Below are positions 341 through 33,451 of a DNA stretch of 64,000 nucleotides, piece after piece. Position 1 is the stretch's first letter, and every line of letters starts with the position of its first letter. The stretch comes from Candidatus Sungiibacteriota bacterium (GTDB lineage Bacteria; Patescibacteriota; Minisyncoccia; Sungbacterales; SURF-37). A program made the translations under genes and the position numbers. The stretch is taken from positions 19,302 to 83,301 of the forward strand of contig JACPMF010000007.1 in the NCBI GenBank assembly GCA_016186145.1, given 5' to 3'. The notes beneath the pieces were generated by a model, which was not told the DNA's origin, ran no database searches, and saw only the letters and a program-made list of their open reading frames with translations.

Positions 341-738
341 GCTCTGTTCCCCCTTTCTTGGGAAGGTACTGCGATGCCTACAGACTATCACAAATTGACT
401 TTTTCGTCAAGGACAACTAAAATTTATAAAGACCCCCATAGTCCCGATTCGTCCTGCGCTTTGCGTAGATGACGAATCGAGGATCCTCGATTTTCTTGCT
501 GCGGCTTCGCCGCAGAGAAAATCGGGACTCAATGGGCGAAAAGCGTTTAAATAGTCCCGCAACTTCCGCGACCAAAGGGAACGAGAAGTTGGCGAGAATC
601 CCGCACCTCCCAAACTGCTGACCTGTTAAAATATAGAGTCAGTATCGCGGAAGTACGGGATCGCGCACTCTAACCTCATCCCGCTTTCAGCGGGATTCGG
701 GATGGTGCGGTGACTTTTCACGGGATTATGGCTTTTTT
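341..738. other. ~400-nt noncoding structured region with repeated CGGGAT/ATCCCG motifs; contains one copy of the 'AATCGAGGATCCTCGATT' palindrome element (441..530)
   Basis: No convincing ORF. It contains a perfect 18-bp palindrome at 473..490 flanked by the inverted pair GTCCCGATTCG / CGAATCGGGAC, a GC hairpin GCTGCGGCTTCGCCGCAG, and a further hairpin ATCCCGCTTTCAGCGGGAT near 690..712. Confidence 0.3.
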
Positions 739-811
739 GCACCCATAGCTCAGCTGGCAGAGCAGTTGCCTCTTAAGCAAACGGTCGCAGGTTCGAATCC
801 TGCTGGGTGCA
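739..811 (+). tRNA. tRNA-Lys (anticodon CTT)
   Basis: Cloverleaf folded by hand: acceptor GCACCCA/TGGGTGC, D-arm GCTC..GAGC, anticodon stem GTTGC/GCAAC with loop CTCTTAA (anticodon CTT), T-arm GCAGG-TTCGAATC-CTGC, discriminator A. 73 nt, no encoded CCA. Confidence 0.9.
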
Positions 812-825
812 AAAAATTCATCTAA

Positions 826-885
826 TCCCCGAAAAAGCTGCAGACTCTTAATCTGTAGATGTAGGTTCGATTCCTACTGGGGGAA
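826..885 (+). other. tRNA-like fragment / pseudo-tRNA (anticodon arm with CTT loop, T-arm GTAGG-TTCGATT-CCTAC, 3' acceptor half), lacking a D-arm
   Basis: Anticodon stem GCAGA/TCTGT with loop CTCTTAA and a perfect T-arm at 861..877, followed by TGGGGGA, which pairs 6/7 with TCCCCGA at 826..832. Only 5 nt separate the acceptor and anticodon stems, so there is no D-arm. Looks like a tRNA 3'-half remnant, such as an old att site. Confidence 0.4.
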
Positions 886-917
886 TTAAATCTGGAATTA
901 TAGATATTCAACTACTA

Positions 918-1853
918 TTACAGGGATTCGATCCCTGTAGAGAAAAGGGCCAACGCATTTTTTGTCGTCATTTCTGACACTTCTTCTACCGATAAATTTT
1001 TAAGCTCAGCAAGCTTTTTGGCAACCTCAATAACATATAGCGGTTCGTTGCGTTTGCCTCTGTAGGGAATGGGCGCCACGTAAGGAGCGTCTGTTTCTAG
1101 AAGTATGCGCTCCATCGGAATGTATTTTACAACTTCGTCGTAGTCGCGCGAAAAAGTTATGACGCCGCCGAAAGAAAACGAAAACCCCAAATCAAGAAGT
1201 TCTTTTGCGTCCTCTTTGACACCGGAAAAAAAATGAATAATGCCGGGAGGAGAACTTAGAACTTGGAGCTTGGAACTTAGAATTTGAATCAGGTCGGGAA
1301 ACGCTTGACGGCAATGAATCATCAGGGGCTTTTTAACCTCGGCGGCTAACTTGATTTGTTGAAGAAAAACTCGATGCTGTTTTGCTTTTCTCTCTTCTAT
1401 AGGCAATCCGCCTTCGCCACAGGTTTCGGCGGATGCTCGTTTTTGTTGTCGCTCGCGTTGCTCGCGAACAAAAACGGCATAATCTAATCCGCATTCGCCA
1501 ATCGCAACAACTTTCGGGTTCTCTGCTAATTTTTTGTAATACTCATAATCAAAAACCTCTCCCCTACTTTCAAATCCTCCTAATTCCTTATTCGTAATTC
1601 CTAATTCCTGTTCATCGTGATATGACTTTTCCGTGTGAATCGGATGAAGCCCCACAGCCGCATACACACCCTCCGTGTATTTTTCGGTAAACCCTACCGC
1701 CCGAGCCGCCGTGTCTTTTTGCGTGCCAACATTAACCATCCACACCCCGGAATCTCTTGCGCGCTTGATTACCAAATCAGCGTCGTCCCGAAACGCCGCG
1801 AATTGAACATGGGTGTGGATATCAAAAAGTTTTGGGATTGACAGAAATTTCAT
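918..1853 (-). CDS. tatD: TatD-family metal-dependent hydrolase/DNase
   Basis: N-terminal DIHTHV motif, GLHP, ECGLD, C-terminal ETDAPY. Contains an in-frame insertion (...ILSSKLQVLSSPP...) encoded by a tandem array of AACTTRG octamers at 1250..1290. Confidence 0.85.
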   Translation of the reverse strand: MKFLSIPKLFDIHTHVQFAAFRDDADLVIKRARDSGVWMVNVGTQKDTAARAVGFTEKYTEGVYAAVGLHPIHTEKSYHDEQELGITNKELGGFESRGEVFDYEYYKKLAENPKVVAIGECGLDYAVFVREQRERQQKRASAETCGEGGLPIEERKAKQHRVFLQQIKLAAEVKKPLMIHCRQAFPDLIQILSSKLQVLSSPPGIIHFFSGVKEDAKELLDLGFSFSFGGVITFSRDYDEVVKYIPMERILLETDAPYVAPIPYRGKRNEPLYVIEVAKKLAELKNLSVEEVSEMTTKNALALFSTGIESL

Positions 1854-2541: not shown

Positions 2542-4062
2542 TTAATGCGGGGTCTCACCTAATCTAGGAAAAAGAGCTTTCTCTTTTCTAACAACTAATA
2601 CCGAATCTTCAATATGAATCTGCTCCTTTATTTTTTCGGCTGTTTCCGGTAAAAACGGCTCCAGTAAATTGGCGATGGTGGAAATAACATAACCGGCATT
2701 TATAACAACGGCTTTCAAATCATCTCCGGCAAGCATCCAGGGCTTCTTCTCATTGATATATCTGTCGCTAAGCGAAACAAGCTTCCAAACGCTAATCAGC
2801 GCCTCGTTCAGCCGGAACCCCTCAAGCTGGCGCTCGTACTCCAGAAAAACATTCTTACAGCCGACGCGTATTCTTTCTTCAATTTCTTTTTCTCCGCCAG
2901 AGGCGGAGAAATCAAAACGAATCGGCCCGAGCTTCGCGCCAACCGCAGCAATCCGGGCCACCAGATTACCGAGTCCGTTAGCCAAGTCTCCGTTATAACG
3001 CTCTTCAAATTTTTTATAGCTAAAGTCGCCGTCTTCATACGAAGGAAATTCGCGCAAAAAATAATATCTAACTGGATCAGCTCCATATTTATCGACAACC
3101 TCATCCGGCGATATCACATTACCTACCGTTTTAGAAATCTTTTGGCCTTCGACGTTTACAAAGCCATGAACAAAAATTGTTTTGGGCAATTCAAGCCCTG
3201 CTGACAAAAGCATCCCCGGCCAGATTGCGGCGTGAAAACGCAAATTGTCCTTACCGACAACCTGAACGTCAGCCGGCCACCACTTAGAGAATGCTGAATG
3301 CTGAATGCTGAATGCTGAATCATCGTGGCCGTAGCCGATGGCAGAAATGTAGTTTACCAGCGCGTCGCACCATACATACATGGTTTGCGTCGGATCGTCC
3401 GGCACCGGCACGCCCCATGGCAAATCTTTGCTGGGTCGGGAAAAACTCACGTCCTCAAGGCCGCTTTTTATTAACGAGAGAATCTCATTTCTTCTCGAAT
3501 CCGGCAAAACGTTCATGCGTCCGGAAACGATCGCCTGCTCTATTTGTCGGGAAAATTTTGACAACCGAAAAAACCAATTTTCTTCCTCAACGACCTCCGG
3601 CTCTTTTTGGTGATCCTGGCATTTCCCGCCGATCAAATCTTTTTCGGTTATAAACGCTTCGTGCCCCACGCAATAAAGGCCGCGGTATTTTTTCCAATAT
3701 ATATCCCCTGAATCTTTCAGCGCCCGCCACATTTTTTGAGCGCCGGGCCAGTGCCGTTTCTGGTCGGATGTTCGTATGAAATCGTCGTAAGAGATATTCA
3801 GAAGTTTTTGCATATCACGGAACTTCTCTGAATTTTCATCAACCAGCTCTTTCGGCGTTTTTCTTTCTTCTTCCGCTTTTCGAACTATCTTTGCGCCATG
3901 CTCGTCGGTGCCAACCAAAAAACGGACATCGTCGCCCTTAATCCTTCGGTAGCGCGCAAGAACATCGGCAATAAGCGGATCCAAAATATGGCCGACATGG
4001 GGCGCGGCGTTAGCATACGGGATGCTGGTTGTAATATAAAATTTATTTTTTTGATTTGACAT
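2542..4062 (-). CDS. metG: methionyl-tRNA synthetase
   Basis: Class I aaRS HIGH-type motif (PHVGH) near the N-terminus and KMSKS-type motif KISKT. The track ORF extends to a TTG at 4239. The ATG at 4062 (MSNQKNKFYITTSIPY...) is the more plausible start. A divergent gene starts at 4135. Confidence 0.9.
   Translation of the reverse strand: MSNQKNKFYITTSIPYANAAPHVGHILDPLIADVLARYRRIKGDDVRFLVGTDEHGAKIVRKAEEERKTPKELVDENSEKFRDMQKLLNISYDDFIRTSDQKRHWPGAQKMWRALKDSGDIYWKKYRGLYCVGHEAFITEKDLIGGKCQDHQKEPEVVEEENWFFRLSKFSRQIEQAIVSGRMNVLPDSRRNEILSLIKSGLEDVSFSRPSKDLPWGVPVPDDPTQTMYVWCDALVNYISAIGYGHDDSAFSIQHSAFSKWWPADVQVVGKDNLRFHAAIWPGMLLSAGLELPKTIFVHGFVNVEGQKISKTVGNVISPDEVVDKYGADPVRYYFLREFPSYEDGDFSYKKFEERYNGDLANGLGNLVARIAAVGAKLGPIRFDFSASGGEKEIEERIRVGCKNVFLEYERQLEGFRLNEALISVWKLVSLSDRYINEKKPWMLAGDDLKAVVINAGYVISTIANLLEPFLPETAEKIKEQIHIEDSVLVVRKEKALFPRLGETPH
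3291..3318. repeat. heptanucleotide tandem repeat (GAATGCT/ATGCTGA)x4 inside metG, encoding a repeated SAFSIQH-type peptide
   Basis: Four perfect 7-nt units counted directly in the sequence. A 7-nt unit is not a multiple of 3, so any single-unit slippage would frameshift metG. Confidence 0.8.
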
Positions 4063-4134
4063 GGTGTTCGCCCCCATGGTACAGATATTACTACGTTCTT
4101 TCAACAAATCAATTTCGCAATACGGAGGAAAAAA

Positions 4135-4836
4135 ATGGCCAGGAAAAGATTTCTTTACACGATTCTTGCCATTGCTGCCATTATCGCTCTTTTTACGACT
4201 ATTACTGTTTACAAACAAGAAAAAATTCAAAAGATTCAAGAAATAAAAGGGGGTTCAATTTCTACAAATACCGAAGATGCCGCAAAAGACTTACCGGAAT
4301 CCTCCACAATTAGGCAGGCGGCCCTGCTGGCAAAAAATGCGGCTGATAAACAGCGGGCTGAAGAAAAAAAGAGGTTAGACGAAGAAAAAAATATAAAAGC
4401 TGCCGAGGTAATCAGTAACGGATTAATGCTATACTATTTCAACGGTGGAAATAGCCCAACAAACCACATACCCTCCTCTGGCGTGATTAGATTAAAAACT
4501 GACAAATACGACAATTACAATCACAACAAGTTTGCCCCGGAGGTTTTCGCTCTATACCCTAAGTGTATGAATGATGAAGATAGAATGTACGTGGAACAAA
4601 CTTGTATATACACTGCATTCATTCTCGACAGAGTACCGCGCAACAAAGAACTCTTCGGGGCACTAGCGCTTGCGCGAGATGCCGGCATACAAATCGTATT
4701 AACTTATGCTGATAACAATGAACCTGGTAGCTTGTACAAAAGTACTAATACGCGGGGAACACCCCAGATATGGATTAATATTCTCACCACTGACCAAGCC
4801 ATTATAGATTATCTCACCAAAGACGCCAGTAAATAG
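4135..4836 (+). CDS. hypothetical membrane-anchored protein (N-terminal TM helix)
   Basis: A 233-aa ORF with a hydrophobic segment LYTILAIAAIIALFTTITV after a basic N-terminus. No family recognised. Confidence 0.5.
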   Translation: MARKRFLYTILAIAAIIALFTTITVYKQEKIQKIQEIKGGSISTNTEDAAKDLPESSTIRQAALLAKNAADKQRAEEKKRLDEEKNIKAAEVISNGLMLYYFNGGNSPTNHIPSSGVIRLKTDKYDNYNHNKFAPEVFALYPKCMNDEDRMYVEQTCIYTAFILDRVPRNKELFGALALARDAGIQIVLTYADNNEPGSLYKSTNTRGTPQIWINILTTDQAIIDYLTKDASK

Positions 4837-4844
4837 CCGAAAAA

Positions 4845-4868
4845 AGAGCGCTCGAAAGCGCTCTTTAA
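4845..4868. terminator. bidirectional hairpin terminator between convergent genes
   Basis: GAGCGCTCGAAAGCGCTC perfect hairpin flanked by an A-run upstream and a T-run downstream. Confidence 0.5.
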
Positions 4869-5924
4869 TTATCCGTTGCCGCCATACTGAAATACCCCCC
4901 TCTTTTTACGGTCGGTATCCGACAAAAACTCTACAAGCACGCTTGCAACCGGAACCGCCAAAAGAAGGCCGAGAACTCCGCCGAGTTTTCCCCCGATCAA
5001 AAGCGCTATGATGACCACCAGGGGATTCAATCCGATTGTTCTTCGCATAACCGTAGGGACGATCAAATGGCTTTCAATCTGCTGGATGACGAAGTAAACG
5101 GCGATAATGATAAGCCCGAGAACGGGACTTTGCACGAAAGCAACCGCCACGGCGGGTGCTGCGGCAAAAATCGGCCCGATAACCGGAATAACTTCGAAGA
5201 TAGCGGCGAGCACCGCAAAAACCAGACTGTACCGGACATCCAAAAGAGTAAGCGCGATGTAAACCATAATGCCGACAATAACCCCGAGAAGCGCCTGGGC
5301 GCGCAGCCACTGACCAAGCTTCTGCTGCGCCCTCAACCACAAGTCAACCGCATATTCCTCGTACTCAAGCGGAACAATCAGGCGGAGAAAATTCTCAATC
5401 CCTTTTTCCTGGGTCGCGAGGTAAAACGAGACGACAATGGTAATCACCGCAACGGTTACGCCGCCGAAAAAATCCACCGTCAGCGCAAGAGTATTCTCGG
5501 CAAGCTGTTGAAGCTGGCCGGGCGCTGCGGCAAAAAGTTCCTGCCGGTTCTCAACGAATAAACCCGAAAGAGGAACACCGGTAAACGATTGGATTTCCCG
5601 CAGAAGTTCGCGCTGATAAATAGGATACGAAGAAATAAAATTCTGAAGCTCGCCTACAACTGCCGGCAGGGCAAGATATATAACGCCGATAAGGAAAACG
5701 GCAGCAAGAGCGTAGATCACAATAACAGAGATAATCCGTGACACACGGTACTTTCTTCCGAACTGGACGATGGGTTCGATTGCCGATGCGAGAACCACGG
5801 CAAAAAGAAGGGCGGCCAGTATTTGCCACAGGTAGTATGCGGCAGCAACCAAAAACACGAGCCCCAAAAGACGGAGAAAGGTTCCCCAAGTAATGTCTAT
5901 TTTTTCTAGTTGTTTGGTAGGCAT
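4869..5924 (-). CDS. AI-2E family transporter (PerM/UPF0118-like permease)
   Basis: About 350 aa, multiple TM helices, with a conserved C-terminal block (...LNPLVVIIALLIGGKLGGVLGLLLAVPVASVL...) typical of AI-2E/UPF0118. Confidence 0.7.
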   Translation of the reverse strand: MPTKQLEKIDITWGTFLRLLGLVFLVAAAYYLWQILAALLFAVVLASAIEPIVQFGRKYRVSRIISVIVIYALAAVFLIGVIYLALPAVVGELQNFISSYPIYQRELLREIQSFTGVPLSGLFVENRQELFAAAPGQLQQLAENTLALTVDFFGGVTVAVITIVVSFYLATQEKGIENFLRLIVPLEYEEYAVDLWLRAQQKLGQWLRAQALLGVIVGIMVYIALTLLDVRYSLVFAVLAAIFEVIPVIGPIFAAAPAVAVAFVQSPVLGLIIIAVYFVIQQIESHLIVPTVMRRTIGLNPLVVIIALLIGGKLGGVLGLLLAVPVASVLVEFLSDTDRKKRGVFQYGGNG

Positions 5925-29599: not shown

Positions 29600-29887
29600 C
29601 TACCGCTTCTTTAGCGTAATCGCTTTCAGTTGACACTTGGGATTACTACACTCCTGGCGCCGTTCCCCGCTTTCGCCTACTATATCTTCCGAAAGTTCTT
29701 CGCTACACCATGGACATGGAGACCGAAACACAGGATTCCACCCGCGGATCCAATAATACAGAAGAAGAAAGACAGCAACCAACACGCCCCCCGCAATTGC
29801 AAGTACGCCAACACCCCAAAGCTGATGCCACATGCTCCCAGCGTCCATTTCGGCTAACCCCTTTTTAATCTCAAAATTAAGGTGCAC
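29600..29887 (-). CDS. hypothetical small membrane protein with C-terminal Cys motif
   Basis: 95 aa, one TM (VLAIAGGVLVAVFLLLYYWI), then CPWC...C..C. Confidence 0.45.
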   Translation of the reverse strand: MHLNFEIKKGLAEMDAGSMWHQLWGVGVLAIAGGVLVAVFLLLYYWIRGWNPVFRSPCPWCSEELSEDIVGESGERRQECSNPKCQLKAITLKKR

Positions 29888-29914
29888 TATGGTAATAACA
29901 AATAGCGCTCTATA

Positions 29915-31957
29915 ATGTCAAACTTCAAACTTTTTTCAAATTTCAAACCAACCGGAGATCAACCGGGCGCCATTAGCCGACTAACGGCAAATCTGCACGC
30001 CGGCATTAAACATCAAACCCTCTTAGGGGTAACCGGTTCCGGGAAAACATTCACGATGGCAAACGTTATTGAGCGCGTGCAGAAACCAACGCTTGTAATC
30101 TCGCACAACAAAACGCTCGCCGGACAGCTTTACCAGGAATTCAAAGAGTTTTTTCCGAAGAATTCGGTCCATTATTTCGTGTCGTACTACGACTACTACC
30201 AACCGGAAGCATACATTCCCCGAACGGATACCTATATAGAAAAGGATGCAAAAATCAACGATATAATAGACGCCCTCCGGCACGCCGCAACCGCATCCCT
30301 CCTGACGCGCAACGACGTCATTATCGTCGCATCCGTATCGTGCATCTACGGCATCGGCGACCCGGAGGAATACGAAAAAATCACTCTTGATTTAGAAATC
30401 GGCAAAAAAATCGCGCGTCGCGATCTTTTACACTACCTTGTTCTTTTGCAATACGCCAAAAATGAATTTGATCCGCGCCAAGGACATTTCCGCGCGCGAG
30501 GAGACATGATAGAGATTTACCTTCCGTCCGGAGAAGAAATAATCGACGTGGAACTTGAAAACAATATAGTCGTATCGCTGAAGAAACGCCGGCAGCAAAA
30601 CCAAATTCACGATTCTGAATTCCAAACGCTTAATTCCGCGAAAATCTTTCCGGCGAAACACTTTGTCACGCCGCGCCAGAAACTTGAACTGGCCATAAAA
30701 AATATCCGCCAGGAACTGAAAGAACGCCTCTCGGCGCTCAAGAAAAACGGACGGCCGCTCGAAGCCGAGCGGCTGGAGCAACGAACCCATTTTGACCTGG
30801 AAATGTTGAAAGAAACCGGATATACGAACGGGATTGAGAATTATTCCCGCCACCTATCATTTCGCGAACCCGGTTCTCCGCCATCCACCCTTATCGACTA
30901 CTACCGCCACCGTTTTGGCAATCAGTTTCTTGTATTTATCGACGAATCGCATGTGTCTATTCCACAACTTCGCGGCATGTATCACGGCGACTATGCGCGA
31001 AAGCAAACCCTTGTTGATTACGGCTTCCGCTTGCCGTCTGCCATAGACAACAGACCGCTGAAGTTCACGGAGTTTGATAAAAAAATTAACCAACGAATTT
31101 ATGTTTCAGCAACACCGTCTGAGTATGAACTTAATCTGAGCCGCAGTTCGCATTCAGGCGTTCTAAGTTCTCCGCCAGAGGCGGATAAGCTCAAAGTCCC
31201 AAATTCATACGTCGTAGAGCAGTTCATCCGTCCGACCGGAGTTCTTGACCCGGAAACCGAAATCCGACCGACAAAGGGTCAAATCAAAAATGTCATCGCT
31301 GAAATTAAAAAACGCGTAGCCAAAAAAGAACGCTCTCTCGTCCTCGCTCTGACAAAACGCCTCGCAGAAGATATCGCCGAATACCTGCAGGAAGCGGGCA
31401 TCAAAGCCGAATACCTCCACTCCGAAGTAAAAACACTGGAACGCTCTGATATCCTCAAAAATTTGAGAACGGGAAAACATGACGTAATCGTCGGCATCAA
31501 TCTTTTGCGGGAAGGCCTTGATCTGCCGGAGGTTTCTCTTATCGCCATCCTGGACGCCGACAAGGAAGGATTTTTGAGAAACGAAACAACTCTCCTTCAA
31601 ATCATGGGGCGCGCCGCGCGGCATGTTGACGGCAAGGTGGTTCTCTACGCGGACACCATAACCGATTCGATGCGGCGGGCAATCGGCGAAACGAAGCGCC
31701 GGAGAAAAATTCAAGCGGAATACAACAAAAACAACGGCATTACCCCAAAAAAAATTGAAAAGGCAATACGAAAATCTCTCCTTGAAGAAATCGCTCCCGC
31801 CAAAAAGGAAGAAGAAATTTTTACGCCTTTAAACGCGCCCTCTCGAGAGGCTGTATCCGCCTTAGAGCGCGAGATGCGTAAAGCGGCAAAGGAGATGAAC
31901 TTCGAATTGGCCGCGAGAATTAGAGATCGTATTAAAATGTATAAACAGCAAAAATGA
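29915..31957 (+). CDS. uvrB: excinuclease ABC subunit B
   Basis: GVTGSGKTF Walker A, helicase motifs, UvrB interaction domain and C-terminal UvrB/UvrC domain (...EMNFELAARIRDRI...). 680 aa. Confidence 0.95.
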   Translation: MSNFKLFSNFKPTGDQPGAISRLTANLHAGIKHQTLLGVTGSGKTFTMANVIERVQKPTLVISHNKTLAGQLYQEFKEFFPKNSVHYFVSYYDYYQPEAYIPRTDTYIEKDAKINDIIDALRHAATASLLTRNDVIIVASVSCIYGIGDPEEYEKITLDLEIGKKIARRDLLHYLVLLQYAKNEFDPRQGHFRARGDMIEIYLPSGEEIIDVELENNIVVSLKKRRQQNQIHDSEFQTLNSAKIFPAKHFVTPRQKLELAIKNIRQELKERLSALKKNGRPLEAERLEQRTHFDLEMLKETGYTNGIENYSRHLSFREPGSPPSTLIDYYRHRFGNQFLVFIDESHVSIPQLRGMYHGDYARKQTLVDYGFRLPSAIDNRPLKFTEFDKKINQRIYVSATPSEYELNLSRSSHSGVLSSPPEADKLKVPNSYVVEQFIRPTGVLDPETEIRPTKGQIKNVIAEIKKRVAKKERSLVLALTKRLAEDIAEYLQEAGIKAEYLHSEVKTLERSDILKNLRTGKHDVIVGINLLREGLDLPEVSLIAILDADKEGFLRNETTLLQIMGRAARHVDGKVVLYADTITDSMRRAIGETKRRRKIQAEYNKNNGITPKKIEKAIRKSLLEEIAPAKKEEEIFTPLNAPSREAVSALEREMRKAAKEMNFELAARIRDRIKMYKQQK

Positions 31958-32360
31958 AAAAGTCCCGATTTTGTCAAAATTTTAATCGCTCATGTTCTAC
32001 ACATATATACTAAAATCGACCAGAACTGGTGAATACTACATTGGCTATACTGGCGATCTCTACCAACGCTTGTACGAACACAATAAAAACCGAGTTAAAG
32101 CTACACGCGGAAAGGGTCCTTGGAAAGTATTCAATCGGGAAAAATTTCTCACCGAGTATGAGGCTATTAGAAGAGAACGGCAAATAAAAAGCTGGAAAAG
32201 CCGGCGGATGATTGAACGATTAAAATTTTGATACAAAATCGAGGATCCTCGATTCGCCAGCCGCACTTGGCGCGGGGCGAATCGGGACAGCAAAGGAAAT
32301 GAATTTTGAACTCGCCGCAAAAATCCGCGACCGAATAAAGACCTATCGGAAAAATGGTTG
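31958..32360 (+). mobile_element. putative GIY-YIG insertion cassette at the uvrB 3' end, bounded downstream by a diverged ghost duplicate of the uvrB terminus
   Basis: 32291..32360 (CAAAGGAAATGAATTTTGAACTCGCCGCAAAAATCCGCGACCGAATAAAGACCTATCGGAAAAATGGTTGA) re-encodes AKEMNFELAAKIRDRIKTYRKNG* and aligns at about 75% nt identity with the current uvrB 3' end (31887..31957). It also contains the 18-bp palindrome AATCGAGGATCCTCGATT (32237..32254). Confidence 0.45.
31992..32231 (+). CDS. GIY-YIG nuclease family protein (single-domain, UPF0213/YhbQ-like)
   Basis: 79 aa. YTYILKS...YYIGYTGDLYQRLYEHN has the GIY-YIG motif with conserved Arg and Glu. Confidence 0.85.
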   Translation: MFYTYILKSTRTGEYYIGYTGDLYQRLYEHNKNRVKATRGKGPWKVFNREKFLTEYEAIRRERQIKSWKSRRMIERLKF

Positions 32361-32433
32361 ACGGGCGCAGACTTTCTAAGTATCATTTCAGAGCACTTTC
32401 ACAACAAACAGGAAGGTCGATTGGAGGCCCAAC

Positions 32434-32868
32434 ATGATAAATCTCGGATCGTCGTGCCGAACAAACCCGATACGAGCCATAGACGCACGGGAAGAAACTT
32501 TCGATATTCTCAGAATTGCGGAGTATCTTGGATGGGAAAAACTGGAAGCAGAAAGTGACGACATCGTATCAGGCAAACGCTGCCCCCGCTTTAAATTGAT
32601 GGTAATGCAAAAGGGAATACACGGCCAAAAAAACGTAATCGCAATAACGGAAGAAAGATCCGAGGCCTCTTACGGACCAACAATCGTTCTTAAAAAACCG
32701 GAAATGACAAGATTTTTATATTTTTTTGTCGACACTGAAGACGGCGGGGAGCAAGAAGTAAAAATGGTCACCATAACAAACTCTTCCGGCTCGCAGATAA
32801 TAATTCGAAAAGAATTCGGGCTCCAAAAACAAAACGAGCCAACCTATAACTTCCTCGCGATAATCTAG
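32434..32868 (+). CDS. hypothetical protein
   Basis: 144 aa. GGAGG 6 nt upstream of the ATG. Followed by a terminator. No family recognised. Confidence 0.45.
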   Translation: MINLGSSCRTNPIRAIDAREETFDILRIAEYLGWEKLEAESDDIVSGKRCPRFKLMVMQKGIHGQKNVIAITEERSEASYGPTIVLKKPEMTRFLYFFVDTEDGGEQEVKMVTITNSSGSQIIIRKEFGLQKQNEPTYNFLAII

Positions 32869-32890
32869 AACAACACCGCTTAAGCCACAT

Positions 32891-32918
32891 ACGTTACGTG
32901 GCTTTTTTCTTAACCAGC
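32891..32918 (+). terminator. rho-independent terminator
   Basis: AAGCCACATACGTTACGTGGCTT hairpin followed by TTTTTT. Confidence 0.55.
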
Positions 32919-32973
32919 ACAACGCACAACGTTAATGTTGACAAAAAACTCTCCTTTGATAAACTAATATCAT

Positions 32974-33180
32974 ATGGCAAATACTGTCCAGATACCAAAA
33001 CCCGTCCTTAGTGAATTTCTCGAGGCTGGAAGAAGATTTAACGCAGCCGAAGACGCGCTAGAAAATTTTTTGCTGGCCGCCGATAAGGACTTTATAAAAA
33101 AAATGCGTGATTTAAGAAACTTGCACAAGGCCGGAAAGCTTTCCGATTGGTCAAAACTCAAAACGAAATATGGCTTATGA
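32974..33180 (+). CDS. putative antitoxin of the RelE/ParE module
   Basis: 68 aa. Overlaps the downstream RelE/ParE toxin gene by 11 nt (typical TA arrangement). Helical and charged. The assignment rests on genomic context. Confidence 0.55.
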   Translation: MANTVQIPKPVLSEFLEAGRRFNAAEDALENFLLAADKDFIKKMRDLRNLHKAGKLSDWSKLKTKYGL

Positions 33181-33451
33181 TATCCGGCCGCACAATTCTT
33201 TCGAGCGGCCGTTTTCTAAACTCACAACAGGCGATAAAAAACGAGTTATTGAAAAGCTAGAACTTATAGCGCAGCACCCGGAAAAGACCGGAGCACCCAT
33301 GGGCAACCTGCCAGCAGATCTGCGAGGACTTCATAAAATAAGAGTCGGCGATCGGCGTTTGTTCTTTTGGGTAGACAATGAAAAGAAAGAAATTGTTCCG
33401 TATACTATAGATAAACACGATAAAGCGTACAAAAATTTGTACAAAAGCTAA
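33170..33451 (+). CDS. RelE/ParE-family type II toxin
   Basis: 93 aa. ...LRGLHKIRVGDRRLFFWVDNEKKEIVPYTIDKHDKAY is the classic RelE/ParE C-terminal pattern. Confidence 0.8.
   Translation: MAYDIRPHNSFERPFSKLTTGDKKRVIEKLELIAQHPEKTGAPMGNLPADLRGLHKIRVGDRRLFFWVDNEKKEIVPYTIDKHDKAYKNLYKS

Follow-up and report, generated by a model that had tools for sequence, protein, structure and literature searches.

We analyzed a stretch of 64,000 nucleotides (nt), hereafter the window, from Candidatus Sungiibacteriota bacterium (assembly GCA_016186145.1, contig JACPMF010000007.1, positions 19,302-83,301 of the forward strand). The host is known from a metagenome-assembled genome and is an ultra-small groundwater bacterium of the Patescibacteria. 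The subject of this study is a small cassette at the 3′ end of uvrB, in which a gene for a GIY-YIG nuclease of 79 amino acids (aa) is set in a hairpin element and is followed by a second, displaced copy of the uvrB terminus, here called the ghost (Table 1). The window UvrB contains the Pfam domains ResIII, UvrB_inter, Helicase_C, UvrB, and UVR. Its amino acid sequence is 79% identical to that of L002 and 86% identical to P0069, the UvrB on contig L216, which was the closest relative found in a protein search.

Table 1. Positions of the cassette, its parts, and the second element copy in the window
Feature	Position	Strand	Basis or remark
uvrB coding sequence as now expressed: native body plus carried terminus	29915..31957	+	open reading frame (ORF) call, Pfam
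Replacement (carried, foreign-like) uvrB terminus, AKEMNFELAARIRDRIKMYKQQK and stop, in frame with the body	31886..31957	+	
Insertion relative to the L216 empty site, 404 nt	31886..32289	+	copy spacing, L216 alignment
Hairpin element with ORF, 327 nt, bounded by GTCCCGATT (31962..31970) and AATCGGGAC (32280..32288)	31962..32288	+	
Hairpin 1, 5′ arm; nuclease gene leader, pairs with the 3′ end of the ORF	31966..31992	+	
GIY-YIG nuclease gene, 79 aa, catalytic domain only, bacterial Slx1-like/UPF0213 type	31992..32231	+	Pfam
Hairpin 1, 3′ arm; overlaps the nuclease codons ...MIERLKF and stop	32213..32241	+	
Central perfect palindrome AATCGAGGATCCTCGATT	32237..32254	+	
Hairpin 3, stem CGATTCGCC/GGCGAATCG	32250..32284	+	inverted repeat, covariation
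Ghost, the displaced native uvrB terminus, AKEMNFELAAKIRDRIKTYRKNG, stop included	32290..32361	+	tblastn, L216 colinearity
Native downstream DNA: spacer and orf144	32362..32868	+	75% nt identity over 587 nt to L216
ORF-less miniature element, 88 nt: GTCCCGA, bulged hairpin, TCGAGGATCCTCGA, bulged hairpin, TCGGGAC	441..528	.	upstream of tRNA-Lys

When the tail of UvrB was compared with the whole window by tblastn, the ghost was recovered with an E value of 3e-8 and 74% identity over 23 aa, and the runner-up had an E value of 0.03. At the DNA level the two copies of the uvrB end are 72% identical over 57 nt without a gap, and their starts lie 404 nt apart. The reading frame and the stop codon of the ghost are intact, yet no upstream ORF is joined to it. 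The same arrangement of uvrB, nuclease ORF, and ghost was seen again in the independent Logan contig L001. A sequence-only reading of this DNA had described a 70-nt ghost of the UvrB C-terminus with about 75% identity, a 79-aa GIY-YIG gene after the uvrB stop codon, and an 18-bp perfect palindrome. All three were recovered, the ghost with bounds shifted by 1 to 2 nt and the palindrome at 475..492 as well as within the cassette. A chance similarity or an assembly artifact is ruled out by the E value of the ghost, by the Logan contig, by recurrence at many loci, and by the palindrome, of which the window holds two matches against 0.04 expected.

Contig L216 contains neither a GIY-YIG gene nor a hairpin element at uvrB. 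In blastn comparisons, window positions 29715..31942, covering the uvrB body to near its end, aligned with L216 positions 2806..4983 at 80% identity, and window positions 32295..32877 aligned with L216 positions 4932..5512 at 75% identity over 587 nt. The second alignment is colinear and sets the ghost, the spacer, and orf144 against the uvrB 3′ end, the spacer, and orf147 of L216. The ghost matches the L216 uvrB end in 56/72 nt, the working end in 47/72 nt, and the spacers that follow the ghost stop and the L216 uvrB stop are about 80% identical. At the protein level, P0069 ends in ...ELAAKIRDRIKTYRKSR and stop, in which the segment KIRDRIKTYRK equals the ghost; the diagnostic residues are K, T, and R in P0069 and the ghost versus R, M, and K in the working end. 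The latter (...ARIRDRIKMYKQQK and stop, with the tail …RIKMYK…) is closer to more distant relatives, for example L002/P0070, where L002 ends in ...ARIRDRIKMYKNK and stop.

Because the uvrB end, the spacer, and the next gene of L216 line up with the ghost, the spacer, and orf144, the ghost is the native uvrB terminus, still joined to its native downstream DNA. Relative to this empty site, the inserted 404 nt are made up of a 72-nt replacement terminus, the spacer AAAA, the 327-nt element, and one A. They lie between the uvrB codons ...REMRKA and AKEMNF..., and the L216-type empty 3′ site reads ...CGTAAAGCG before this point and GCGCGGGAAATGAAC... after it. The working terminus thus arrived within the insertion, and the carried end now completes UvrB, so that the gene stays intact. 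The sequence-only reading had expected uvrB of a relative without the GIY-YIG gene to end at the ghost terminus, as was found in L216, and its proposal that a mobile cassette had brought along its own replacement terminus is supported by the same empty site.

Among 80 related GTDB genomes, which formed the comparison set for the uvrB locus (563 kb), uvrB lies in the conserved order ruvA<-, uvrB->, rpsT->, holA<-. In 0/80 of these genomes was a GIY-YIG gene present within 3 kb of uvrB, and in 0/80 was the element core found at uvrB. A nucleotide comparison of both uvrB ends with the 80 relatives gave 35 to 44 of 54 matches to either copy, by which the native end was undecidable. This comparison was uninformative because it is saturated at that distance, and only the closer relative L216 settled which end is native.

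The nuclease ORF, the palindrome, and the CGAATCGGGAC module belong together in one bounded unit, which the sequence-only reading had missed. The bounds of this element form a perfect 9-nt inverted repeat, and its layout is GTCCCGA, hairpin 1, the center TCGAGGATCCTCGA, hairpin 3, and TCGGGAC. The GIY-YIG gene is not free-standing and occupies the loop of hairpin 1, whose stem comprises 24 nt with 88% complementarity. With the conserved 2-nt bulge allowed for when the arms were compared, a 6-bp lower stem, the bulge, and a 15-19-bp upper stem were common to seven ORF-bearing elements. The start codon of the nuclease gene lies inside the long stem of hairpin 1 and has kept this place in the seven loci; the stem around it could restrain translation of the nuclease. 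Such restraint of translation by structure is known for some intron-encoded endonucleases.

As single-stranded DNA, the ORF-bearing unit had a folding z score of -4.1 relative to shuffled sequences, and its scaffold alone reached -8.7. In the minimum-energy fold, two bulged hairpins stand side by side. The sequence of the outer stem (TCCCGA/TCGGGA) is almost that of the central stem (TCCTCGA/TCGAGGA), and because of this near-homology the unit can refold as a fully paired four-way junction. In homologue-derived loci the central palindrome occurs in the variants GCGGATCCGC, GAGGATCCGC, and GAGGATCTTC. It varies at one position per side, and the sides do not always change together. This pattern is no less compatible with the bulged double hairpin than with a perfectly paired central stem.

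A second copy of the element, the ORF-less miniature upstream of tRNA-Lys, carries the CGAATCGGGAC module at 441..451 on the minus strand and folds as single-stranded DNA with z scores of -8.4 (plus strand) and -8.0 (minus strand). The sequence-only reading had suspected a related insertion or target site at 441..530. The relationship was confirmed by the miniature, whereas a duplicated tRNA fragment was not significant: a candidate ghost of the tRNA-Lys 5′ part around 441..528 scored 7.0, compared to a shuffle mean of 7.6. A relaxed search of the window found no copies beyond these two, and Rfam had no family for either of them (window searched at gathering thresholds, two regions at E<=10).

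The 79-aa ORF matched PF01541 with an E value of 1.3e-15 and, in a phmmer search of the PDB, 1zg2 with an E value of 2.3e-8 and also 1ywl. The GIY and YIG motifs, the central Arg, and the C-terminal Glu are present, and auxiliary domains are absent. Residues Y5, Y16, R26, H30, N31, and E62 are invariant in 16 homologues, and G18 is conserved. We assign the protein to the Slx1-like branch, not to the UvrC branch. The former was described as vertically inherited and probably involved in repair, selfish GIY-YIG enzymes being derived from a UvrC-like lineage, and eukaryotic Slx1 is a structure-specific nuclease (PMC1564403). The window protein belongs to the same sequence family as BH0048 (1zg2), EF2693 (1ywl), and the UPF0213 proteins and shares their minimal size and their lack of an auxiliary domain. 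Whereas the UPF0213 family was described as vertically inherited (PMC1564403), the window-type members are embedded in a mobile element.

No other GIY-YIG gene was present within the 64-kb window. The ORF is co-oriented with its target in the window and in L202-205, L208, L215, L214, L206, L116, L196, L154, L160, and L142, and neither a promoter-like nor a terminator-like site was found between uvrB and the ORF. Because of the co-orientation in all contexts examined and the lack of such sites, the nuclease is likely expressed by read-through from the host gene. In the homologues P0010, P0012, P0020, P0007, and P0009 there is no stop codon before the central palindrome, and translation runs through it to give tails such as ...IEDPRF. 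Some copies thus use a portion of the scaffold as coding sequence.

Metagenome contigs were scanned for the scaffold with GAGGATCCTCGATT, a gap of 10-40 nt, and then AATCGGGAC as the query. The element module was found on at least 120 contigs, in many of them on both strands owing to the two-fold symmetry of the unit. The element statistics given here (97 distinct copies, 102 elements, 194 hairpins) refer to the matches listed from these contigs. In the 97 distinct copies the inverted repeats are conserved and the outer and central stems are invariant, an invariance that is partly built in by the scan pattern. Hairpins 1 and 3 vary in sequence and keep their pairing: positions 3-6 are paired in 91-96% of the 194 hairpins versus 39-63% of shuffles, and the covarying stem positions comprise all four Watson-Crick pair types. 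The hairpins of the miniatures are built like those of the ORF-bearing element, with a 6-bp stem, a bulge, and an upper stem, and 26/93 long hairpins of ORF-less copies carry the apex CAAATC…GATTTG, which resembles the ORF-bearing stem.

GIY-YIG genes are enriched in this setting, with 10 in 764 kb of element-bearing loci versus 0 in the 563 kb of uvrB loci from the 80 relatives. The closest homologues of the nuclease are 57-69% identical to it, the architecture is common to L202, L205, L206, L208, L214, and L215, and the nuclease gene is built into the element at seven independent loci. In L202-204, L205, L208-210, and L215, a ghost of the uvrB 5′ end precedes the element with its ORF, and a ~10-nt leader connects the latter to the real uvrB; in one example the ghost reads MFKLTSQFEPAGDQPQ up to the joint and the real gene MFKLISKFDPAGDQPQAI.... 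In L202, 16 nt separate the ghost ATG from the ruvA start; this is where uvrB natively begins. The uvrB 5′ joint (after GDQ, GDQPQ, or GDQPK) is shared by the four lineages L202, L205, L208, and L215, in which the ghosts and the neighbors differ. In L214 the topA 3′ end is followed by the element with its ORF and a ghost of the topA zinc-ribbon end. The recurrence of such ghosts at the uvrB 5′ and topA 3′ ends supports the earlier suggestion that small GIY-YIG genes behave as mobile, homing-like cassettes. In L206 the element is simply inserted into a large ORF, 11-12 nt ahead of its stop codon, without a duplicated segment.

Transfer RNA genes are frequent neighbors, with 32 of them within 250 nt of the element centers in the 120 loci listed. 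In L116, L196, and L154, a displaced tRNA 5′ part is followed by the element, a GIY-YIG ORF, and an intact tRNA. The insertions into the D loop in L116, L196, L154, and L113 are precise compared to the adjacent intact tRNA and have sharp borders, and neither these insertions nor L206 showed a short direct repeat of the kind left by target-site duplication. Displaced segments, where present, abut the element border within 0-3 nt. Among the ORF-less elements, 15/102 had flanking direct repeats above the threshold, set at the 99th percentile of a cross-locus control, and the duplicated termini beside ORF-less copies include gatB 3′, topA 5′, tpiA 5′, pyridine-nucleotide oxidoreductase 5′, and tRNA 5′ parts. 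The idea of a tRNA intron was rejected: when the element was removed in silico with 16 border variants, ARAGORN found no tRNA restored across the junction, and the element therefore lies in displaced tRNA fragments and not in working tRNA genes. Rfam searches of 20 element-bearing loci returned tRNAs only and did not confirm the RNase P-like look of the L099/L195 flanks, and in these 20 loci no element was found in an rRNA gene.

The differences between the duplicated copies are concentrated at third codon positions. In eight protein-coding pairs, for some of which the frame was picked for the highest amino acid identity, this applied to 65/94 differences (P=1.6e-12), and in the six pairs whose frame is given independently by start codons, stop codons, or genes identified with Pfam to 53/75. 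Because decay in place would spread changes evenly over the codon positions, the copies diverged as coding sequence. This indicates, in agreement with the empty site in L216, that the duplicated copies diverged as working genes in different lineages and were joined later.

Several loci show further arrangements. In L120 (1080..1300), hairpin 1 holds a complete tRNA-Arg(TCG) instead of the nuclease ORF, and the element is directly followed by a partial 3′ copy of the same tRNA, which suggests that hairpin 1 acts as a cargo site. In L154 (4230..5750), three tandem 155-bp units, each a tRNA-Ile 5′ part with an element in the D loop, lie beside an intact tRNA-Ile, which is followed by a 3′-half copy; the displaced 5′ part, element, GIY-YIG ORF, and intact tRNA of this locus belong to tRNA-Cys. 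L154 looks like a case of repeated invasions at one site. In L116 (5917..6300), L196 (60..480), and L154 (4300..4700), the old tRNA copy ends in the anticodon loop at about position 35/36, and an ORF-less element lies in the D loop of the displaced 5′ part in 3/3 cases. Position ~35/36 is enriched for group I introns in tRNA genes of Patescibacteria (PMC13011429). In L205 (1362..1790), L214 (1600..1760), and L211 (1130..1510), ghosts were themselves struck by further complete or partial elements, which represent nested invasions.

We consider it probable that the cassette is a selfish homing-type element consisting of a double-hairpin core of about 330 bp, the 79-aa nuclease gene, and the recoded last 23 codons of uvrB. 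Both the nuclease activity and the mechanism of insertion are inferred from sequence features. In the proposed course of events, a break would be made in, or arise at, a cassette-free allele, and repair would copy the cassette from carrier DNA, probably acquired from a related cell. Homology on one side would be provided by the gene body, and the other side would rely on the ghost or on end-joining at the element border. Synonymous recoding of the carried terminus would limit recombination with the ghost and may shield the filled allele from being cut again. As the carried recoded terminus keeps the host gene intact, we propose that the insertion is nearly neutral. After fixation the ORF would decay by deletion between the long stem arms, leaving a miniature element.

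Several observations weigh against a homing-type element. A 79-aa domain without a DNA-binding module is unlikely to be a sequence-specific homing enzyme, its close relatives (57-69% identical) sit at quite different sites, and occupancy of the uvrB 3′ site was seen in the window genome only. The homology arms that the ghosts offer are short (about 50-70 nt) and only ~70-78% identical, and no donor can be named for the carried terminus from the saturated GTDB nucleotide comparison. In addition, the invariant hairpin bases suggest that an enzyme or a host factor may act on the element itself, which classical homing does not need. It is conceivable, though in our view rather doubtful, that the double-hairpin scaffold is the substrate of its own Slx1-like nuclease and that the ~330-bp unit is autonomous and junction-cutting, a new mechanistic class. 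The GIY-YIG domain would then liberate or activate an element end, this end would invade conserved genes, and the carried terminus would spare the host gene.

The main rival explanation, which we regard as unlikely, is transposition by hairpin ends: the nuclease would cut the extruded double hairpin or four-way junction at its borders, and the freed end or unit would join new sites. Termini would be duplicated secondarily, when an element together with a gene end integrates in another species by homology-facilitated illegitimate recombination, with homology in the gene body on one side and an illegitimate join at the element border on the other. This agrees with the sharp borders without target-site duplication in the tRNA D loops, with the lack of a flanking repeat in L206, with displaced segments always abutting the element border, and with the large number of ORF-less copies. 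Recognition of the element is implied by its invariant outer and central stems, it can refold from two hairpins into a four-way junction and back, and enzymes of the Slx1 family are structure-specific (PMC1564403). However, four lineages that differ in their ghosts and upstream neighbors have the same uvrB 5′ joint, a repetition that random illegitimate joins would not produce, no GIY-YIG enzyme is known as a transposase, and excised or circular forms were not observed.

Recombination alone, by which a small DNA with the element and a gene-end fragment enters through host homologous recombination and the nuclease is a passenger or a host repair factor, seems very unlikely. The route would be either a Campbell-type single crossover of a circle, which leaves direct diverged repeats flanking the insert exactly as seen here, or a double crossover with the gene body and the ghost as arms. 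Since only terminus-containing fragments leave the gene intact, it would also explain why all duplications are termini, and ORF-less elements show the same footprint. On the other hand, arms of 20-70 nt with about 70% identity are poor RecA substrates, and a mere passenger is hard to reconcile with the catalytic residues being all kept across the nuclease family, with a nuclease gene that is physically part of the element at seven independent loci, and with the enrichment of GIY-YIG genes at element-bearing loci. We regard it as highly improbable that the small protein is an accessory excision-repair nuclease placed beside uvrB for co-expression, the repeats being by-products of local rearrangement. 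Five of the nine closest-homologue contexts do adjoin uvrB (four upstream, one downstream), and UvrC works with UvrB by means of a GIY-YIG domain and a UVR motif (PMC1564403). Yet the gene is missing beside uvrB in the 80 relatives and in L216, its occurrences come with the hairpin scaffold and a ghost terminus (L206 without a duplicated segment), the same type of cassette is found at topA, a large ORF, and tRNA genes, and the protein falls into the Slx1-like and not the UvrC branch.

The DNA on either side of the two element copies shows some additional features. A promoter-like site at 32358..32386 (TTGACG, 17 nt, TATCAT) shares bases with the ghost stop codon, and in L216 the equivalent place after the native uvrB stop contains TTGACG, 17 nt, and TATTAT. 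This site may drive orf144 and is a possible reason why the 3′ end of the ghost was retained. The product of orf144, a gene present also in L216, has no Pfam match. The uvrB-rpsT spacer measures ~45 nt in close relatives (L002), and its counterpart in the window (32434..33451) holds orf144 and a weak ParE-like toxin-antitoxin pair; the same pair also lies between uvrB and rpsT in L006. The spacer looks like a hotspot for accessory genes. Between the miniature and tRNA-Lys, positions 551..735 contain dense nested inverted repeats without a match in Rfam, including a 16-bp stem TCCCGcAACTTCCGCGA…TCGCGGAAGTaCGGGA, with ends resembling the outer arm of the element; the repeats might represent either a diverged form of the element or a small RNA of unknown kind. 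A partial tRNA-Lys(CTT) at 826..891, 14 nt downstream of the intact tRNA-Lys (738..812), comprises the anticodon arm, the T arm, and the 3′ acceptor without a D arm and scored 35.5 bits with the Rfam tRNA model. Its local alignment score with the tRNA, 19.5, was reached by 0/1000 shuffles. A third T-arm-like hairpin lies at 919..939, and neither an element nor a nuclease gene lies between the tRNA-Lys copies. The partial copy may date from an older terminus replacement or mark a former integrase attachment site.

The elements apparently form an undescribed family that is widespread in Patescibacteria, very small, nuclease-bearing, and terminus-replacing. Terminus-replacing selfish endonuclease genes had so far been a matter of fungal mitochondria, and here they would occur in bacteria with tiny, streamlined genomes, where the targets are essential genes (uvrB, topA, gatB, tpiA, and tRNAs). 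They would offer a concrete route for the horizontal movement of short stretches of housekeeping genes and thereby for mosaic genes, and such hybrid genes, with the ghost ORFs and partial tRNA calls that result, can lead phylogenies and annotation astray. Minimal Slx1-like GIY-YIG proteins, usually seen as vertical repair factors, appear here as cargo of a mobile element. A 79-aa enzyme and an invariant scaffold capable of forming a four-way junction make a tractable pair for studying what a domain-only GIY-YIG protein recognizes, and the conserved 14-18-bp core can serve as a marker of past invasions in Patescibacteria genomes. If the scaffold should be the substrate of the nuclease, no smaller autonomous mobile DNA than this unit would be known in bacteria, its enzyme would be the first selfish member of the Slx1-like branch, and the miniatures would form a Patescibacteria-wide repeat family.

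No description of this element was found in the literature on its core sequence, on GIY-YIG in connection with Patescibacteria, the candidate phyla radiation (CPR), miniature inverted-repeat transposable elements (MITEs), or uvrB, and on UPF0213/YhbQ/COG2827. Group I introns, DDE or HUH transposons, REP/RAYT systems, and integrase-driven islands were each compared with it and rejected, as defining features of each class were missing. For a group I intron, there was no Rfam match at E<=10, only ~87 nt are non-ORF sequence, and the host gene is completed by the carried terminus and not by splicing. Terminal inverted repeats (GTCCCGATT/AATCGGGAC) are present as in DNA transposons and MITEs, but there is no fixed target-site duplication, and the sole ORF encodes a GIY-YIG protein and not a DDE, HUH, or serine/tyrosine recombinase. 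With MITEs and REP/RAYT (REPtron) systems the element shares many short palindromes, an enzyme gene bracketed by repeat arms, and ORF-less derivatives; it differs in lacking target-site duplication, in its GIY-YIG instead of DDE/HUH enzyme, and in having copies tied to duplicated gene termini. The likeness to REP/RAYT is thus one of layout only, its protein not being an HUH Y1 transposase. As in integrase-driven islands, a replacement gene end is supplied and a partial copy is left on the far side. However, the window unit measures 0.4 kb, not kilobases, the 404-nt insert contains no recombinase, and its repeats are 72% identical instead of forming identical attachment-site cores. The likeness to integrase-driven genomic islands drawn in the sequence-only reading therefore fails mechanistically.

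In T4-like phages, the free-standing GIY-YIG homing genes of the Seg/Mob type lie beside conserved genes without an intron or intein and spread by break repair with co-conversion of flanking markers ('intronless homing'). Their enzymes have DNA-binding domains, and neither a duplicated gene terminus nor a palindromic scaffold or miniatures are known to accompany them. In rRNA genes of the CPR, GIY-YIG insertions that are neither group I nor group II introns and many unexplained insertions of <200 bp were reported (Tsurumaki et al. 2024, PMC11270868), the GIY-YIG ORFs with no deeper analysis. They come from the same bacterial group and likewise place GIY-YIG ORFs in non-intron insertions, but lie inside rRNA genes, and neither a scaffold nor a terminus duplication was described for them (PMC11270868). 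These insertions may be related to the element.

Judged by its layout, the closest known analogue of the window cassette is the mobile ORF (mORF) of fungal mitochondria. Such mORFs insert with a foreign C-terminus in atp6, atp9, cox2, and nad3, in Glomus in all four of these genes, and leave the native C-terminus downstream (PMC3630166); an atp6 mORF of Allomyces macrogynus is cited there from Paquin et al. 1994. In both systems the gene core is followed by an in-frame inserted C-terminus, the endonuclease ORF, and the native C-terminus. The native copy agrees with that of close relatives, the inserted one is divergent, and the differences are largely synonymous. The enzyme of the fungal atp9 mORF is a GIY-YIG protein, as in the window. 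All structural features of mORFs that we examined were found in the window cassette, namely flanking terminal copies, a distal copy that is the native one, and an empty site in relatives; occupancy of the same site in different lineages was seen for the uvrB 5′ site in four lineages and for the uvrB 3′ site once. The window host, however, is a bacterial chromosome and not an organelle, and the enzyme is a 79-aa Slx1-like catalytic domain, whereas the fungal enzymes are multi-domain LAGLIDADG or GIY-YIG proteins. Furthermore, the window ORF is set in a conserved double-hairpin scaffold of which ORF-less miniatures exist, and the element family also replaces 5′ termini and tRNA 5′ parts. Compared to mORFs, the new points are that the host is a bacterium, that the nuclease is of a minimal Slx1-like form, and that a conserved hairpin scaffold exists together with miniatures derived from it.

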